From: a virus
Lineage: Duplodnaviria > Caudoviricetes
Strand: one strand, 5' to 3'
IMG/VR virus record: IMGVR_UViG_3300044648_000086
Coordinates: 1-45,778 of that record
Length of the DNA: 45,778 nucleotides
Of this stretch, positions 3,363-45,589 are shown piece by piece; the stretch's first letter is position 1; each line of letters begins with the position of its first letter. The notes beneath the pieces are model-generated. The model had not been told where the DNA came from, made no database searches, and worked only from the letters and a program-made list of their open reading frames with translations. The position numbers and the translations under genes are program-made.

Positions 3363-3574
3363 CCAGCGAGGAATTCCTGAACGCCGCCGACCTGCAGGCC
3401 CTCACCGGCTTCGCGCGCGCTGCCGAGCAGACGGCGTGGCTGACAGAGCACAGCGTGCCGCACCGACGCGACGGCAAGCGGGTGATCGTTTCCCGGTTCC
3501 ACGCGCGCGAATGGCTCGCCGGCCGCAACGTGGTGCCGTCCACCGCGCCGAACTTGGAAGCGCTCGGTGCCTAA
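3359..3574 (+). CDS. xis: Putative excisionase (DUF4224-like)
   Basis: FLNAADLQALTG...QTAWL...PNLEAL pattern, immediately upstream of the integrase. Confidence 0.75.
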   Translation: MTSEEFLNAADLQALTGFARAAEQTAWLTEHSVPHRRDGKRVIVSRFHAREWLAGRNVVPSTAPNLEALGA

Positions 3575-4598
3575 AGTCACGCAGTACCCCCGCCTGCGCA
3601 CCCATGTCCGCAAGGGCAAGGCCGGGCGCGTGTACGTCTACTACGTGTACGACATGCGGCCGGAGGGCAAGCCCGACGTCGCGCTGGGCAAGGACCGCGA
3701 CGAGGCGATCGCCAAGTGGGAAGAGCTGCACCTGAAGCGCCCCCGCGTGAAGGGCCGCCTCGAAGAGGCGTTCCTGCGGTGGGAGGAAGAGCGGCTGCCG
3801 GAATACACCAACGAGGGCACGCGCCGCACCTACGCCCAGAGCCTGCGCTGGCTGCGCAAGGTGTTCGCCACGGCCACCTGGGACGCCACGAAGCTGCCGC
3901 ACCTGGTCGCCTACCTGCGCGCGCGCAAGGGCAAGGTGCAGGCCAATCGCGAGATCGCGCTGCTGTCGATCATCTGGAACCAGGCCCGCCTGTGGGGCAT
4001 GACCGCCCTGCCCTTCCCCGCCCACGGCATGGAGCGCAGCCGGTGGAAAAACCCCGAGCAGGCCCGCGAGTTCGAGGTGACCGACCAGCTGTTCGGCGCC
4101 GTGTACGACGAGGCCTCGACACTGTTGCGCGACGTCATGGACCTGTCGTCGGCCACCGGCATGCGCCTTACCGATTGCATCAAAGTCGTGTTGCCGGCCA
4201 ACGACATCCTGCGACTGAAGGCCAGCAAGACCGGCAAGAAAGCGGATTTCGACCTGTCGCTGTCGACGGTGCTGCCCGCACTGGTCGAGCGCCGCCGCGG
4301 CTACGATGCGAACCACCTGATGCTGATCTCCACGCCCGACGGCTTCCCGGTGCACCTGAAGGATCTGCGCCGCGAGTGGGACAAGGCGCGCGCCAAGGCC
4401 GCGGCGAAAGCCCGCGCCGACGGCGACGACCAGCTGGCCGGGCAGATCGAAGCGATGTTCCTGCGCGACATGCGCAAGATGGCTAGCGACCGGGCCGAGG
4501 ACGCCGAGGCGGCCAGCAAGCTGCTGCAGCACTCGTCGGTGGCGTTGACGCGAAAGCATTACCGCAGCAAGGCGGACAACCTGAAACCTGTGAGGTGA
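3567..4598 (+). CDS. int: Tyrosine integrase
   Basis: TGMR, KASKT, FLRDMR, LLQH, KHY catalytic motifs; N-terminal arm-binding beta-domain; adjacent to a tRNA-derived attP. Confidence 0.93.
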   Translation: MPKVTQYPRLRTHVRKGKAGRVYVYYVYDMRPEGKPDVALGKDRDEAIAKWEELHLKRPRVKGRLEEAFLRWEEERLPEYTNEGTRRTYAQSLRWLRKVFATATWDATKLPHLVAYLRARKGKVQANREIALLSIIWNQARLWGMTALPFPAHGMERSRWKNPEQAREFEVTDQLFGAVYDEASTLLRDVMDLSSATGMRLTDCIKVVLPANDILRLKASKTGKKADFDLSLSTVLPALVERRRGYDANHLMLISTPDGFPVHLKDLRREWDKARAKAAAKARADGDDQLAGQIEAMFLRDMRKMASDRAEDAEAASKLLQHSSVALTRKHYRSKADNLKPVR

Positions 4599-5456: not shown

Positions 5457-5505
5457 ATTGTTGTAGGCGTTTTGCCTTAATCCGTCCGATTGGGGTTTTA
5501 CGTCC

Positions 5506-38795: not shown

Positions 38796-39040
38796 AGTCG
38801 ACCCGCCTGCTCGCGGCATTGGCCGTGGGGATGATGGCGAGCATGGGCGCCGCGGCCGCGCAGGTCATGCACAGCGCCCATGCGCCGCGGGCCCCGAAGA
38901 CCGCCGCTCCGTCCCGCACTGTCGGCAGCTCGCGCAACGGCGGCCGCCGCAGCAGCAACCGCGCCGTGCAGCGCGCCGCCGTCAAAGCCCGCAACGTCCA
39001 GCGCCATCGCGCGCACACGAAGGGGCGCAACCATGAGTGA
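38792..39040 (+). CDS. Small basic protein with a hydrophobic N-terminus
   Basis: Coupled at both ends. Confidence 0.6.
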   Translation: MKSTRLLAALAVGMMASMGAAAAQVMHSAHAPRAPKTAAPSRTVGSSRNGGRRSSNRAVQRAAVKARNVQRHRAHTKGRNHE

Positions 39041-40262
39041 CATCCGCACGCACGCTATCTGCAGCCCCAGCGGCGCGGCCGGCTGGATGCGCTGCGCCGG
39101 CTGGCGCGGCGGCACCGAGGGCAATGAGTACAGCCGCGAGGGCACCGCGGCGCACGAACTGGGCCAGCAATGCCTGGAGACCGACAGCAACGCGGCCGAC
39201 CACATCGGTCGGGTGATCACCGTCGAGGGCCAGGCCTTCACCGTCGACGCCGACATGGCCGAGGCCGTGCAGCGCTACGTCGACCTGGTGCGCCAGCTGC
39301 GCGACGGCACCGGCGGCGAGCTGCTGGTCGAACAGCGCCTGCCGATCGACCACATCACCGGCGAGGACGGCGCCAAGGGCACCAGCGACGCCGTGGTGGT
39401 GGCCGGCGACGAGCTGATCGTGGCCGACCTGAAGTTCGGCCGCGGCGTGGAAGTCGACGCGGTGGAGAACGAGCAGCTGCAGATGTACGCGCTGGGCGCG
39501 CTGCGTGAGTTCGAGCTCGTGAACGACTTCAAGACGGTGCGCATGGTGGTGATCCAGCCGCGGCTGCATCACGTGAGCGAGTGGAGCATCACGGTCGACC
39601 AGCTGCGCTCGTTCGGCGAGACCGCGCGCGTCGCGGCCAGCGCCGCCTTGAACCAGACCCCGGGCAACCTGGGCCTGCAGCCCGGCGAGAAGCAGTGCCG
39701 CTGGTGTGCCAACAAGGCCGCCTGCCCGGCGCTGGCGGACTTCGTCGAGCAGACCACCGGCGCCGACTTCGACGTCGTGGATCCGCCGGCGAACCTGTCG
39801 AAGCTGGACGCCCAGTTCACCAGCGCGCTGTCCGACGACTACCTGGCCACCGCCATGTCGGCCGCCGACCTGATCGAGCACTGGCTGAAAGCCGTGCGCG
39901 CGGAAGTCGAGCGCCGCCTGCTGGCTGGCAAGCCCGTGCCCGGCTTCAAGCTGGTGCTGGGCAAGCAGGGCAACCGCAAGTGGGTCGACGAGGACGCGGC
40001 GATCAAGATGCTGCGCGAGACCTTCCGCCTGCCGGTGGAAAAGGCCTTCGACCTTTCCCCGATCTCGCCGACCACGGCCGAAAAGCTGCACAAGGCCGGC
40101 GACATCGGCCCGCGCCAATGGCCCAAGTTGGCGCCGCTGATCGGCCGCGCCGAGGCCAAGCCTTCGGTGGCGCCCGCCTCCGACAAGCGCGACGCCTGGG
40201 TGCCGCCCAACGTCGCCGACGACTTCGAACCCGTGGCCGAAGAGGCCAGTGACTTGGCATGA
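39033..40262 (+). CDS. DUF2800 / Cas4-like PD-(D/E)xK nuclease
   Basis: HAICSPS...WMRC; EGTAAH; GTSD; DLKFG; QLQMYALGA; CRWC...C. Confidence 0.9.
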
Positions 40263-40699
40263 GCTCGCGCGAACGTTCGCTGCTCTACAAGGTGTGGTTC
40301 GCGATGAAGTCGCGATGCCACAACCCTGCCGACAAGTCCTGGGCTCGGTATGGGGGGCGGGGGATCGTGGTCTGCGATCGCTGGCGCGATAGCGTCGAGA
40401 GCTTCATTGCCGACATGGGGCCGCGCCCGCCCGGCCACACGGTAGACCGCCGAGACAACAACGGCAACTACGACCCGAACAACTGCCGCTGGGCGACGCC
40501 GCGACAGCAATCGGAAAACCGGCGTCCGCAAGCACGCAGCACCACCGGAATCTCCGGCGTGGCTTGGCACGCGGGTGTCGGAGCGTTTCAAGCCTACATC
40601 CGCAGCGATCGCAAGGCGCACCACTTGGGCACGACGCGGGACTTCTTCGAGGCGTGCTGCCTGCGCAAAGCCGCCGAACTTCATTTCTTCACCACCTGA
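40259..40699 (+). CDS. HNH/AP2-type homing endonuclease
   Basis: MKSRC...YGGRGI.VC..W...DR.DNNGNY.P.NCRWAT; TGISGV.W...HLG. Confidence 0.85.
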
Positions 40700-40709
40700 A
40701 AGCACCACC

Positions 40710-41270
40710 ATGAGCAAGCTCAAACTCGCCGACGTTCGGCTCTCGTTCCCCGACCTGTTCGAGGCCGTCCAGTTCCAGGGCGCCGGCCCCTTCAGCTATC
40801 GCGCCTCGTTCCTGCTGCCGCCGAACCACCCGCAGAAGGCGGCGATCGACGCGGCGATCAAGGCCGTCGCCGCAGAGAAGTGGGGCGCCAAGGCCCCGCA
40901 GATCCTGCCGGGCATCCTGGGCACGTCGAACAAGTGCTGTTTCGTCGACGGCAACACGAAGGCCTATGACGGCTACGCCGGCAACTGGGCGCTGACCACC
41001 ACCCGCCCGCAGGAAAAGGGCCGCCCGCTGGTTCTCGACCAGGCGAAGAACCCGCTGGTGGCCGCCGACGGCAAGCCCTACGCCGGCTGCTACGTGAACG
41101 CCAGCGTGGAGTTCTGGGCGCAGGACAACCAGTACGGCAAGGCCATCCGCTGCACGCTGCTGGGCGTCCAGTTCCTGCGCGATGGCGACGCGTTCGGCGG
41201 CGGCAGCGTCGCCAACCCCGACGACTTCGAAGACATCGCGGCCGGCGCCAGCGCCGACGCGCTGGCCTGA
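40710..41270 (+). CDS. ssDNA-binding protein (DUF2815 / T7 gp2.5-like)
   Basis: VRLSFPDLF; YAGCYVNA; LLGVQF.RDG..FGG; acidic tail. Confidence 0.9.
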   Translation: MSKLKLADVRLSFPDLFEAVQFQGAGPFSYRASFLLPPNHPQKAAIDAAIKAVAAEKWGAKAPQILPGILGTSNKCCFVDGNTKAYDGYAGNWALTTTRPQEKGRPLVLDQAKNPLVAADGKPYAGCYVNASVEFWAQDNQYGKAIRCTLLGVQFLRDGDAFGGGSVANPDDFEDIAAGASADALA

Positions 41271-41277
41271 CCTATCA

Positions 41278-41361
41278 CCCCGGCCTTCGGGCCGGATCCT
41301 TCGCACTGCGGCCGCCCTCACACGCGGAGAGGGGCCATGTAACAGGCCGCAGTGCAAAGGA
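41278..41361 (+). promoter_or_regulatory. UUCG hairpin followed by a long stem-loop
   Basis: CCGGCC-TTCG-GGCCGG, then TCCTTcGCACTGCGGCC...GGCCGCAGTGCaAAGGA. Confidence 0.55.
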
Positions 41362-41374
41362 CACGGGGGACACC

Positions 41375-41761
41375 ATGCTCACTGACAAAGAAATCATCGA
41401 CGCCGTTGTCGGCGCGCCGGCCGGCTGGACCAGCAGCACCACGCTGCTGGCCGTGGGCCGCGCGGTCGAAGCCAAGGTGCTCGCCAAGCACGCCGGCCTG
41501 CACGCCGCGGTGCACGAGGTGCTGCGCAACCAGGAGCAGTTCGGCATGCAGCGCGACCCGAGCTACCGGCTGCTGGCCGGCGCCGTCGGCCGCGACTGGG
41601 ACCGGCCGGGCTACGACGTGCGGACGCCTCGGGCAGACGCCGTCCACTACGACGCCGTCCACTACAACGCCGACGGCAGCGTGCGCGAGCGGTACGAAGG
41701 GCCTATTCCAGGCACCGCTGGCGTGGCATTACCTGCAAAGGGGCACGACGATGGCCGCTGA
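41375..41761 (+). CDS. Hypothetical accessory protein
   Basis: RBS GGGGGA; ends in the AGV junction motif. Confidence 0.7.
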   Translation: MLTDKEIIDAVVGAPAGWTSSTTLLAVGRAVEAKVLAKHAGLHAAVHEVLRNQEQFGMQRDPSYRLLAGAVGRDWDRPGYDVRTPRADAVHYDAVHYNADGSVRERYEGPIPGTAGVALPAKGHDDGR

Positions 41762-42119
41762 AACTGTCCCGCTCCCGTTGACCGATGCGCAGATGCTGCT
41801 GGCCTGGATGGACGAAACCTTCGGCAACGACAGTGGCACCGACTGGCACGACGAGGACGCCGCTGCTGTTGGCGATGCCCTGAACGCGGCGATCGAGAAC
41901 TTCAAGCGGATGCGCGCCGCCTGTGGCGTGGCATTGCCCGCATCGGCTGGTTACAAGCTGGTCCCGGTGGAGCCGACGAAGGCGATGCGCAGGGCCGGTG
42001 CCGATGTGTGGGCTGAGCGTTCCGGCCATGTCACTCAAGTCACCGGCGCGATGTATCGGGCCATGCTCGACGCTGCGCCGGAAGCGCCCGCTGGCGTGGC
42101 AATACCTGGGGAGGGTTAG
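41751..42119 (+). CDS. Two-module accessory protein (C-terminal LVPVEPT..M...YRAM...AP module)
   Basis: The two modules are joined at an internal CGV junction motif. Confidence 0.7.
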   Translation: MAAETVPLPLTDAQMLLAWMDETFGNDSGTDWHDEDAAAVGDALNAAIENFKRMRAACGVALPASAGYKLVPVEPTKAMRRAGADVWAERSGHVTQVTGAMYRAMLDAAPEAPAGVAIPGEG

Positions 42120-42121
42120 CC

Positions 42122-42307
42122 ATGAGCACCATCGGACTCGCCGCCCTGCTGTTCGGCACCGGCCCTGTTGCCGCACTGATCCTGATCGCCATGCACCGTC
42201 GCAGGAAGCACCGCGAGGACGTGGCGGCATGGGAGCGGGCGCAAGAGGGGCGCGCTCGTATGCGTACCGCTGGCGTGTTGGGCACTTCGGAGGACAAGAA
42301 TGGCTGA
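42122..42307 (+). CDS. Small single-TM accessory protein
   Basis: Hydrophobic N-terminus followed by RRRK. Confidence 0.65.
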   Translation: MSTIGLAALLFGTGPVAALILIAMHRRRKHREDVAAWERAQEGRARMRTAGVLGTSEDKNG

Positions 42308-42698
42308 CCCTCACTTCACCCTGGAGGCAGCCATCGAGCACCTTGTGCGCTGCCAGAACCTGAGCGGCAGCAGGCCCATGCGGTTGACGATCCGCAAGCA
42401 CAACCCAGGCGGCATGTCCGGCCACGGCACCACCGAGGTGGAGAGCATCGCAGCAGGCTTCGACTGGACGGCAGGACAGGTGATCGTCTACCCGGCCAAG
42501 CCGCTGACCGAACTCACGCCGGAACAGGTCGAGGCCATCGAGAAAAGCGTCCGCGCCGGCAGTAGCTGGCACGCCTACGAGGCACAGAAGAAGCTGCGCG
42601 AGCGGGCGTTGAAGGCTGAGGCCCGCGTTGCCGAACTGGAGCAGCAGCTTGCCGGCACCGCTGGCGTGACACCGTCTGATGGAGCCGATCATGGATGA
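42300..42698 (+). CDS. Hypothetical accessory protein
   Basis: RBS GGAGG; coiled-coil C-terminus. Confidence 0.7.
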   Translation: MADPHFTLEAAIEHLVRCQNLSGSRPMRLTIRKHNPGGMSGHGTTEVESIAAGFDWTAGQVIVYPAKPLTELTPEQVEAIEKSVRAGSSWHAYEAQKKLRERALKAEARVAELEQQLAGTAGVTPSDGADHG

Positions 42699-42918
42699 GC
42701 CAATCGCCGTCGCTTGCAACATCCCCTACGACCTGCACGACGCCTTCCGCGAACTGCTGCCGCGCGCCCAGCGGGCCGGTGATGTAGGAAAGCTCATCGC
42801 CATGTGCTTTGAAGCCGGGGTTGCCGCAGAACGTGAGGCTTGTGCGCTTGCCGCCGAGCAAGCGTTCTCGGACGCGAAGCCCTACAGCGCCGCCAGCTAC
42901 ATCAGGAGCCGCGAATGA
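42691..42918 (+). CDS. Hypothetical accessory protein (AAEREACA motif)
   Basis: RBS GGAG; coupled to neighbours. Confidence 0.7.
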   Translation: MDEPIAVACNIPYDLHDAFRELLPRAQRAGDVGKLIAMCFEAGVAAEREACALAAEQAFSDAKPYSAASYIRSRE

Positions 42919-43376
42919 CGAAGGACTGTACCCCCATCGAATACTGCAACCGCTTCATGGAAGGCAAGCCGTGCGAGTGCTTCCCGACAGCGGCCATCTG
43001 CCAAGCCTGCAACAAAGACTTGAGCGAACACGTCCGCTGCCACTGCCCGTGGCAAGCAATGTGGCGCAGCCCGAGCGGCGCGGACTATCGAAAGATCGAC
43101 GACCAGTGGCGTCTCTTCATTGGGCTGGGGGTGCGCTGGCAATCGTCAACTCGCGTCCCACCGCTGACGGCCGAGATCCTTGACAGCTTGGCCGCCGCAG
43201 CCGGGCTGCTGCGCAGGCTGACCACATCCCATTGCGGCTCCGGCGAAGAGGTCGCCACCCGCATTGATGCCGTGGCGTTCCTTGCGAACCGCATCGACAC
43301 CTGTGGCGTGTCACGCCCCGATTCCCAGACGTTTTGCACTGCAGGTACTGATGGATCTGGAAAGGCCCAGCAGTGA
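42915..43376 (+). CDS. Cys-rich accessory protein
   Basis: ATGA/GTGA-coupled to its neighbours. Confidence 0.65.
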   Translation: MTKDCTPIEYCNRFMEGKPCECFPTAAICQACNKDLSEHVRCHCPWQAMWRSPSGADYRKIDDQWRLFIGLGVRWQSSTRVPPLTAEILDSLAAAAGLLRRLTTSHCGSGEEVATRIDAVAFLANRIDTCGVSRPDSQTFCTAGTDGSGKAQQ

Positions 43377-45589
43377 CCACGCTGTACGGTGACCTGGAGA
43401 CCTACTGCGAGCGGCCGCTCAAGGACGGCACGCACCAGTACGCCGCCGCCGCGCACATCATGCTGTGGGCCTACGCGTTCGACGACGGCCCGGTCAAGGT
43501 CTGGGACTGCGTCAACGGCGAGGTGAGCTGGCACGAGCCGCTGCTCGACGAGCGCGTGACCGAAGCCACGCACACGATGCCCGACGACCTGTGGCGCGCG
43601 CTGTGCGACGAGAAGGTCGAGATCTGTTTCCACAACGTCGGGTTCGACCGCACCATCCTGCGGCACGCGGGCAGCGTGGTCGAGCGCACCGCCGCCCAAC
43701 AGCTGCACCGCTGGCGCTGCACGATGGCGCAGGCCCTGGCCCACTCCCTGCCCGGCGGCCTGGAGCGGCTGTGCGAAGTGTTGGACGTGGCGCAGGACCA
43801 GCGCAAGCTGAAGGTCGGCAAGGAACTGGTGCGCTTGTTCTGCATGCCCAGACCGAAGAACATGAAGCTGCGCCGCGCCACGAAGGCGACGCACCCGGAA
43901 GAGTGGCGCCGCTTCGTCGAGTACGCCGACGCCGACATCCTGGCCATGCGCGCGTGCCGCGCGAAGATGCCCAGCTGGAACTACACCGGCCGCGAGCTGG
44001 AGCTCTTTCACCTCGACGCGAAGATCAACGAGCGCGGCGTGGCCGTCGACCTGGAGTTCGCCCAGGCAGCCATTGAGGCCGCAGAGCGCGCGCAGCGGTC
44101 ACTCGCCGAGCAGACCGTGGAGATCACCGACGGCGCAGTGGGTAGCACCACCCAGCGCGACGCGCTGCTCGCCCACATCCTCGACGAGTACGGGGTCACG
44201 CTGCCCGACATGCAGGCCAGCACGCTCGAGCGGCGCGTGGACGACCCGAGCCTGCCGGCGCCGGTGCGCGAGCTGCTGGCCATCCGGTTGCAGGCCGGCC
44301 GCAACAGCACCAGCAAGTACGGCGCGCTGATCCGCGGCGCCAGCGAGGACGGACGCCTGCGCGGGCTGCTGCAGTTCTGCGGCGCCGGGCGAACGGGGCG
44401 GTGGTCTGGCCGGCTGTTCCAGCCCCAGAACCTTGCCCGCCCTGACGTGGCCGCGGCGGCCGAGTGGCACCGGCACGAGATCAAGACCAGCAAGTACCTG
44501 AAGCTGCGCAGCGCGCCTAACACCTCCGACGAGAACGTCGCCGAGTTCGTGAGCACCGGCATCGAAGCGATCCGCGCCGGCTGCGCCGACCTGCTGTTCG
44601 ACAACGTCATGGCAGTGGCCAGCTCCGCGGTGCGCGGCTGCCTGGTGGCACCTGCTGGCCGCAAGCTGGTGGTGTCCGACCTGGCCAACATCGAAGGCCG
44701 CGACGCGGCGTGGCTGGCCGGCGAGGACTGGAAGCTGCGCGCGTTCGCGGCATACGACGCGGGCACCGGCCCCGACCTCTACAAGCTCGCCTACGCGAAG
44801 GCCTTCCACGTCGACGCCGCCGACGTGAAAGGACCGAAGCGCCAGATCGGAAAGGTGATGGAGCTAATGCTCCAGTACGCCGGCGGCGTCGGCGCGTACC
44901 TGACCGGGGCACTTACCTACGGCATCGACCTGGAGGAAATGGCCGAGGACGCCTACGGGCTGCTGCCAACCGAGCTGCGCATCGAGGCTGAAGGCTTCCT
45001 GCAGTGGTCGCGCGATCAGAAGCGCAACACCTACGGGCTGAGCGACAAGGCTTTTGTGGTGTGCGACGCCTTCAAGCGTGGCTGGCGCAACGGCCAGCCG
45101 GCCATCGCGTCCTACTGGCCGGAGCTCGAGGAAACCGTGCGCGAGGCGATCCAGCACCCGGGCGTGACCCTCACCGCGCGCAAGCTGAAGGTGCGCCGCG
45201 ACGGCAACTGGCTGCGCATCGGCCTGCCCAGCGGCCGCGCCCTGTGCTACCCGTCGCCGCAGGTGAGCGACAGCGGCGAGATCACGTACATGGGGGTCAA
45301 CCAGTACAGCCGGCAGTGGCAACGCCTGAAGACCTACGGCGGAAAGCTGTTCGAGAACATCTGCCAAGCCGTCGCGCGCGACGTGATGGCCTGGAACATG
45401 CCCGCCATCGAGGCGGCCGGCTACCAGATCGTGCTCACCGTGCACGACGAGGTGGTGACCGAGGCTCCCGACTCCCCCGAATTCAACGCCGACCACCTGG
45501 GCCAACTGCTCGCGGCGACGCCGCCGTGGGGCGCGGGCATGCCGCTAGCTGCTGGCGGGTTCGAAGACTACCGCTACCGGAAGGATTAA
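43373..45589 (+). CDS. Family A DNA polymerase with 3'-5' exonuclease
   Basis: DLET, HN..FDR; TGRWSG; SDLANIE (motif A); RQIGKVMELMLQY (motif B); TVHDE (motif C). Confidence 0.95.
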   Translation: MTTLYGDLETYCERPLKDGTHQYAAAAHIMLWAYAFDDGPVKVWDCVNGEVSWHEPLLDERVTEATHTMPDDLWRALCDEKVEICFHNVGFDRTILRHAGSVVERTAAQQLHRWRCTMAQALAHSLPGGLERLCEVLDVAQDQRKLKVGKELVRLFCMPRPKNMKLRRATKATHPEEWRRFVEYADADILAMRACRAKMPSWNYTGRELELFHLDAKINERGVAVDLEFAQAAIEAAERAQRSLAEQTVEITDGAVGSTTQRDALLAHILDEYGVTLPDMQASTLERRVDDPSLPAPVRELLAIRLQAGRNSTSKYGALIRGASEDGRLRGLLQFCGAGRTGRWSGRLFQPQNLARPDVAAAAEWHRHEIKTSKYLKLRSAPNTSDENVAEFVSTGIEAIRAGCADLLFDNVMAVASSAVRGCLVAPAGRKLVVSDLANIEGRDAAWLAGEDWKLRAFAAYDAGTGPDLYKLAYAKAFHVDAADVKGPKRQIGKVMELMLQYAGGVGAYLTGALTYGIDLEEMAEDAYGLLPTELRIEAEGFLQWSRDQKRNTYGLSDKAFVVCDAFKRGWRNGQPAIASYWPELEETVREAIQHPGVTLTARKLKVRRDGNWLRIGLPSGRALCYPSPQVSDSGEITYMGVNQYSRQWQRLKTYGGKLFENICQAVARDVMAWNMPAIEAAGYQIVLTVHDEVVTEAPDSPEFNADHLGQLLAATPPWGAGMPLAAGGFEDYRYRKD

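Follow-up and report, generated by a model that had tools for sequence, protein, structure and literature searches.

A recurrent TGGCGTG site at the boundaries of gene cassettes and protein domains in otherwise unrelated phages

The heptamer TGGCGTG is very probably a real and widespread joint of gene cassettes and protein domains in phages. We describe it starting from the IMG/VR virus record IMGVR_UViG_3300044648_000086 (Duplodnaviria; Caudoviricetes), a complete 45.8-kb record with direct terminal repeats, whose full stretch of 45,778 nucleotides is called the window. Six copies of the heptamer, here termed the core, lie in an array of six small genes between the genes for a single-stranded DNA-binding protein (SSB) and a family A DNA polymerase; none of the six (0/6) has a Pfam family. 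The swapping of accessory genes at clean boundaries is a long-standing question in phages, usually answered by random illegitimate recombination followed by selection. In 16 phages or phage groups one defined site marks such boundaries, builds new proteins by in-frame fusion and, in one of them, brackets the gene of the CBASS inhibitor Acb3. New here are flanks that form a weak inverted repeat around the core, found over 139 sites, with freely varying bases next to the core; this suggests the organization of a tyrosine-recombinase site whose overlap is 7 bp long.

Cassette and module junctions in the window

A preliminary description of the window had drawn attention to six motif copies, all on the plus strand, and all six are found at the positions below, together with the genes in which they lie.

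41709..41735, + strand: site 1, core 41719-41725; closes the body of the gene 41375-41761, its tail giving the Shine-Dalgarno (SD) sequence and the stop
41914..41940, + strand: site 2, core 41924-41930; in-frame fusion joint of two modules in the gene 41751-42119
42082..42108, + strand: site 3, core 42092-42098; end of the gene 41751-42119
42261..42287, + strand: site 4, core 42271-42277; 5' boundary of the Ea22-like cassette
42652..42678, + strand: site 5, core 42662-42668; 3' boundary of the Ea22-like cassette
43294..43320, + strand: site 6, core 43304-43310; last site, its tail reaching the polymerase start; right arm weak (-1.4)
41375..41761, + strand: accessory gene 1, 128 aa, no family
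41751..42119, + strand: accessory gene 2, 122 aa, fusion of two modules; phrog_5913 (unknown function) is matched by its C-terminal part
42122..42307, + strand: accessory gene 3, 61 aa, hydrophobic N-terminus, no family
42300..42698, + strand: accessory gene 4, 132 aa, phrog_6026, Ea22-like
42691..42918, + strand: accessory gene 5, 75 aa, no core at its end
42915..43376, + strand: accessory gene 6, 153 aa, Cys-rich N-terminus

As first described, copies 1, 3, 4 and 5 end 25, 23, 22 and 22 nt ahead of the next ATG, copies 1 and 5 have 15 bp in common, and copy 2 joins two modules inside a gene. The reading of all copies as Ala/Cys-Gly-Val in the same frame holds for the codon phase within each gene, not for one genomic frame. 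Copy 6 does contain the palindrome GGCGTG-T-CACGCC; it looks incidental, because the inverse core is not enriched near the other sites (20 and 18 of 144, against a background of 15%).

The signal in the window is a local clustering of TGGCGTG on one strand and not a genome-wide excess. Over the whole window genome the heptamer has 20 matches against 16.3 +/- 4.1, while the longer pattern C[GT][CG]TGGCGTG occurs six times, always within the array and never on the minus strand. The motif is enriched over a codon-preserving shuffle: with the proteins of the six array genes held fixed, six copies were reached in 1 of 20,000 synonymous shuffles, and shuffles of codon order reached them in none of 20,000. 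Of the eight Gly-Val dipeptides in these genes, six are encoded by the exact core, and the copies employ GCT and TGT, codons that are rare here (GCT accounts for 6 of the 95 Ala codons in the polymerase).

The proposal of junctions for the exchange of gene cassettes and protein modules is borne out by the homologues of the window genes, which diverge at these sites. A unit runs from core to core: first a short tail, in which the upstream protein ends and which bears an SD sequence and a start, then a gene body; units without their own start lead to in-frame domain fusions. A stop in the frame of the core follows within 15 codons at 75 of the 139 sites, and the 64 without one include many internal fusions. 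Genes 5 and 6 travel together as one core-to-core unit. Among cassette homologues, that of gene 4 in an unrelated phage is bounded by the core on either side and has other neighbours. In locus L046 the homologue of this Ea22-like cassette shows the core at the position of site 4 behind an unrelated upstream gene, and at site 5 the DNA homology ends at +7 and +6 relative to L046/L158 and L050, respectively. In the record with this gene 4 homologue, the first 4.7 kb have 11 same-strand copies and the other 46 kb also 11, and cassettes that are merely 76% identical still keep the exact core.

The same picture is seen at the protein level. In 10 of 13 homologues the N-terminal module of gene 2 runs to Gly-Val at site 2 and then diverges, and the C-terminal module is found in P0048 after a different N-terminus. 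The helix motif preceding site 5 in gene 4 is kept in 22 of 32 relatives; nine of these 22 have Gly-Val at site 5, and most of the others run on into a different module without Gly-Val. Gly-Val plus a different tail ends three of the four gene 6 homologues, P0050 having Gly-Val at the place of site 6 and another tail behind it, and shorter homologues stop at an earlier Gly-Val. When DNA segments shared between arrays are compared, the range -10..+40 around a core takes in their 3' ends in both partners in 11 of 24 cases (0.47 at random) and their 5' ends in 6 of 21 (0.41 at random), counts that include several pairs from one phage group and hence are not independent.

Anatomy of the site and its spread among phages

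The site covers about 27 bp, A-G-N-C-R-C-Y-K-N / TGGCGTG / N-M-R-G-Y-G-N-C-T, and is thus wider than the motif first described. All copies have a single orientation and a single codon phase. In 24.7 kb of arrays, which were defined via exact copies and in which variants were counted as well, the exact core occurs 107 times against twice on the opposite strand, and each one-mismatch variant occurs at most seven times, which is the opposite-strand, or background, level. Could the core then be a peptide signal, x-Gly-Val near a C-terminus? The open GGC-GTG frame at 105 of the 107 sites would fit such a signal. However, the first T of the core never changes although it fills the wobble position of 14 different codons, only one codon each is used for Gly and Val, and the residue ahead of them is free; with so many codons supplying this T, the constraint lies on the nucleic acid. 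Synonymous core variants, which the preliminary description had named as the mark of a peptide signal, are absent above background, and we consider this explanation scarcely credible.

Around the core the flanks form a dyad. The correlation between the arms of the 139 sites is 0.64 when centred and at most 0.26 when slid, and remains at 0.60-0.65 with similar arms removed; it was attained by 24 of 20,000 column permutations and by 5 of 216 permutations that preserve codon phase. Mirrored biases fall on wobble positions, namely Y at -3 (125/135) with R at +9 (108/130), C at -6 (102/135) with R at +12 (103/130), and A at -9 (44/135) with T at +15 (75/130). Both arms score positive at one and the same site in 107 of 139 cases, each phage being left out of its own training; the corresponding counts are 12 of 103 for other copies of the heptamer in phages and 4 of 65 for copies in the host. 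Site 1 has the best arm scores among the window sites (6.5/3.8). Conservation is 100% in the core, near background at -1 and +7 and up again at -3 to -6; the core-adjacent positions are nearly free, with a pair identity of 0.32 against 0.59-0.64 at -6 and -4. The 9 nt following the core group into recurring families. Arms neither covary nor gain in folding with their own partner compared with re-dealt arms, which points to recognition of the double strand rather than of a hairpin.

Homology and pattern scans revealed same-strand TGGCGTG arrays in 15 other phages or phage groups, 16 with the window phage. The pattern scans returned mostly chance matches (9 array records from 88 loci, 1 new from 48 and 2 new from 7). 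The final set of 139 distinct sites stems from 19 loci, with two chance-like clusters removed. Left out before counting were the clusters L267 and L269 and a minus-strand trio in the window, all chance-like, and sites too close to the edge of a locus; L087, L096, L102 and L105, which the count filter let through, did not resemble gene-end arrays and were not used. The array phages are otherwise unrelated soil and water phages. They differ in architecture, with RecT, ERF, AAA_24 or Enc34-type proteins and several integrase families, and most arrays are placed between recombination genes and the integrase. A prophage-like region of Ramlibacter monticola has an array of nine copies.

The array is not characteristic of the window phage's own family: all 27 SSB relatives with the polymerase in view, from 30 relatives in total, have 0 or 1 copies in this interval. 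Judging from these relatives, the window phage likely acquired its array from a pool that goes with the host group rather than with its own family. This pool does not span all Comamonadaceae prophages, since a prophage-like accessory region of Acidovorax kalamii with a related integrase nearby (L292, G014:C27:86001-96000) has no coding-strand TGGCGTG array. The 17-base pattern of copies 1 and 5 matched 15 viral loci, none with an array, and a tail pattern gave six matches across 401 family genomes, none clearly an array. No second recurring heptamer stood out in related accessory regions, and no cultured-phage records covering the window array or that of G003 were found.

The cargo consists mostly of unknown genes. 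In G008, the Acb3 gene (E 3.5e-69; L178:16837-17838, minus strand) is flanked by cores and has more core-joined modules fused to its C-terminus; this phage also carries genes for 5-hydroxymethyldeoxyuridine modification. Two genes with Lar domains run into cores.

A recombinase site and its alternatives

Which mechanism could produce such joints? We read the site as one of tyrosine-recombinase type in which TGGCGTG is the 7-bp overlap for strand exchange and the enzyme would be supplied in trans, a reading to which we give somewhat less than an even chance. An asymmetric overlap of 6-8 bp that is identical between partners is present, and so are inverted arms around it, weak and both at the same sites. 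A recombinase would bind these arms and exchange strands across the core. The requirement for an identical overlap would keep the heptamer invariant and its asymmetry would set the orientation, while the codon phase would be set by selection for intact frames and translational coupling, with the frame locked because the tail behind the core holds the next gene's SD and start. The upstream gene would thereby be closed and coupled to the next one, and units without a start would become domains. Homology in the adjoining SD-start block offers a second route of exchange, probably via the phages' own annealases. An identical overlap is also required by lambda Int, for which changes just beyond the cleavage site are silent according to the excerpted text of PMC2817482, and the invariant core with its free neighbours fits this rule.

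In a wider form of this proposal, an uncharacterised dedicated recombinase of a host or helper element might run a universal-overlap cassette standard among unrelated Comamonadaceae-type phages. It would allow in-frame insertion, deletion and fusion and move anti-defence genes such as Acb3, integron-like without attC and with a site that doubles as coding sequence. We regard this form as tentative and would sooner expect it to fail than to hold. If a recombinase does act here, it and its site would be a new pair, with domains naturally shuffled in frame; with Ramlibacter monticola, a named species has a prophage array, so that the mechanism is testable by a simple reporter.

Several observations weigh against a recombinase. 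Each arm holds only about 2 bits, and P is only about 0.02 in the phase-preserving test. Many loci were found by patterns that include flank letters, which biases one to three sites per record; the consensus itself first emerged from loci many of which were found with a pattern fixing part of the tail, and later patterns were designed from it. As already noted in the preliminary description, no dedicated recombinase lies near the array, the only integrase found in the window being that of the phage. This integrase was rejected as the enzyme on the grounds that its att core is tRNA-like and that arrays adjoin integrases of other, mutually different families. No gene family is common to all 13 records and loci compared. 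A conserved strong site was not found in 41 Ramlibacter-related genomes (one match against five for a control pattern), nor beside 14 Ramlibacter integrase matches except for the prophage's own array. Apparent host primary-site candidates in two genomes are ordinary coding sequence. Among sequencing runs, no RNA run with the sequence was listed; two DNA runs, one of them probably the source, were searched as assembled contigs only, which are uninformative on rare circles, and listed no core joints.

The positions of recent exchanges add to these objections. Shared segments end at 0 and +6/+7 in several pairs, but none of three near-identical swaps ends at +7: in one, identity extends to +10; another involves a 19-bp direct repeat around a 359-bp cassette; the third falls beyond the ATG, at +29. 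A fourth pair has the same gene behind the site but a different right arm. These cases indicate that the SD-start block is also a crossover zone, and they do not show a single fixed crossover point. A second class of junction is in use in which an SD is followed by ATGGCTGA and the start overlaps the upstream stop (L158:2613-2642 vs L052:3827-3856); the swap in this pair falls 29 nt beyond a core, at the SD/start junction.

Such swaps speak for a linker-sequence model. Here a core-tail-SD-start block of 35-45 bp would descend from one ancestor, exonuclease and annealase would recombine its microhomology, products that keep frame and coupling would survive, and use would standardise the core. 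Most array phages examined have an exonuclease (YqaJ, PD-(D/E)XK or DUF2800) and/or an annealase (RecT, ERF, AAA_24 or Enc34 SSB) upstream of the array, the recent swaps show 11-19 bp of identity or lie at a start codon, the 9 nt behind the core fall into families, and no recombinase is necessary. Annealase-driven microhomology may do much or all of the exchange. As a full account of the site we rate the model as a strong rival, but as less likely than the recombinase reading. It predicts conservation that decays outward and synonymous variants, whereas we observe the sharp drop at -1/+7, the rise at -3 to -6 and variants at background; it leaves the dyad unexplained; and a stable Red-beta complex needs 23-36 nt according to the excerpted PMC7496540, which exceeds the identity of most site pairs. 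A related idea is that a nick, cut or pause signal, Chi-like or pausing an exonuclease, makes the ends that microhomology then joins. The word is indeed exact and strand-specific with breakpoints at the core or just 3' of it, and lambda exonuclease pauses strand-specifically before GGCGA in the same excerpt of PMC7496540, having GGCG in common with the core, which is a lead only. Against this stand exonucleases from different families in the array phages and, again, the unexplained dyad. As a host Chi the word fares no better: in one array-bearing host sample, 360 kb of the 6.1-Mb Ramlibacter chromosome, it is rarer than expected (65 vs 112-134) without consistent strand skew, and it is absent among the Chi motifs listed in the excerpted part of bioRxiv 10.1101/2020.08.13.249359. 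We rate this explanation as improbable.

The sites might also bind a regulatory protein or act as an RNA element in expression, being exchanged, like PeSLs or stoperators, only because they are repeated. Their place 20-25 nt ahead of starts, their one orientation and the exact core retained in cassettes of just 76% identity would agree with this. The usual operator, though, is the reverse of an invariant asymmetric centre with weak symmetric arms. Within 41200-43450 there is no promoter-like match (sigma70 consensus only) and no terminator-like match, individual sites have no hairpin, their own arms pairing and folding no better than re-dealt ones, the 64 of 139 sites without a stop within 15 codons keep the core, and the same core is found across phages of different architecture. 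We consider a regulatory element unlikely.

Among described systems, lambda att and its secondary sites, as given in the excerpt of PMC2817482, share the imperfect inverted arms, the asymmetric 7-bp centre identical between partners and the free bases just outside; array sites differ in being many, weak, directly repeated, inside coding sequence and common to unrelated phages, and the searches gave no cognate enzyme for them. Shufflons, for their part, are systems that swap protein C-termini in frame. The R64 shufflon sites (sfx/Rci) have a similar 12+7+12 layout with a conserved 7-bp core, but in the part of PMC11852207 at hand they have one conserved and one variable arm, undergo inversions and lie beside rci, whereas array sites are all in direct orientation on one strand, with both arms weak and no adjacent Rci or other recombinase; membership is rejected on these points. 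Lambdoid phages have linker or boundary sequences between gene modules, and their exo-xis/Ea22 genes are said to be modular. Most arrays occupy the exo-xis position, gene 4 is Ea22-like and a short boundary sequence is shared, but the array has one invariant heptamer with dyad arms at nearly every boundary, also in a non-lambdoid phage that encodes a polymerase. Integron arrays, in their general definition, likewise consist of oriented promoterless accessory units bounded by a recurring site (attC/attI, with the integrase IntI). The integron-like reading of the preliminary description stands as far as oriented cassette junctions without attC hairpins are concerned and does not extend to an integron-like enzyme or to circles. 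Within 60 nt of the six window sites there are one GTTRRRY and zero RYYYAAC and so no pair of the two, attC is further rejected because the arms show neither covariation nor a folding gain and the inverse core is not enriched, no IntI next to an attI was found in the window beyond the phage integrase with its tRNA-like att, and the array site lies within a reading frame.

The closest described phenomenon is the shuffling of promoter(early) stem-loop (PeSL) cassettes in T4-type phages (PMC2839356, in excerpt), with repeated motifs in hypervariable regions, small unknown genes gained, lost and swapped, and no integrase identified. PeSLs are, in the same excerpt, intergenic promoters plus stem-loops with a proposed homology recombination, whereas the array site is intragenic and frame-locked, lacks promoter and hairpin and fuses domains. 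Sigma70-like promoters and stem-loop terminators are absent from the junctions (0 and 0 in 41200-43450), and PeSL membership was rejected. On the features tested, the joint belongs to none of the four families integron, shufflon, PeSL and Chi and is most likely of recombinase type; what sets it apart is that its one universal centre lies within coding sequence. A literature search, with subscription journals and supplements outside its coverage, gave no paper describing the motif or the system among those listed.

The window phage and side observations

The window phage is temperate. Its gene set comprises a DUF2800 exonuclease, an HNH nuclease, an Enc34/gp2.5-like SSB, a family A polymerase, a helicase and an integrase. 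The closest genome matches of the integrase are in Ramlibacter monticola (69%), a Nevskia metagenome-assembled genome (62%), Comamonas and Acidovorax, for which reason the host is probably Comamonadaceae-like. Features outside the array are:

3567-4598, + strand: phage integrase
4944-5001, + strand: likely att core, located behind the integrase and corresponding to the 3' half of a tRNA-Leu(CAA)-like sequence; without TGGCGTG
39033-40262: DUF2800 exonuclease, upstream of the SSB
40259-40699, + strand: HNH endonuclease gene, inserted between DUF2800 exonuclease and SSB
40710..41270, + strand: single-stranded DNA-binding and annealing protein, Enc34/gp2.5-like, 5' flank of the array
43373..45589, + strand: family A DNA polymerase, 3' flank of the array

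The att core is matched in five prophage loci (L182-L186); ARAGORN called no tRNA gene in its region, and the tRNA identity is a reading from the sequence. Gene 6 gave no lead in the ESM Atlas, with a best score of 0.78, and Rfam has no match in the window. That also holds for a long imperfect hairpin (z = -4.2, 0 of 200 shuffles) at 41271-41377 on the plus strand, which follows the SSB stop, precedes the first array gene and may be a processing or regulatory RNA element. On a Ramlibacter chromosome (L289, G013:C12) an identical TGGCGTG-containing repeat occurs at 5503 and 11166, 5.7 kb apart, with low arm scores and in a stretch without called open reading frames, perhaps rRNA operons.

Gene 4 is 45% identical to a protein of coliphage PhiR46_1 annotated as Ea22. 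Behind the gene 4 domain, several homologues (P0010-P0021) have an AERE(A/R)CA...AAAIR-type module without a Gly-Val joint. A module of this type is also present in gene 5 of the window (42691-42918), and it possibly represents a second joint system.
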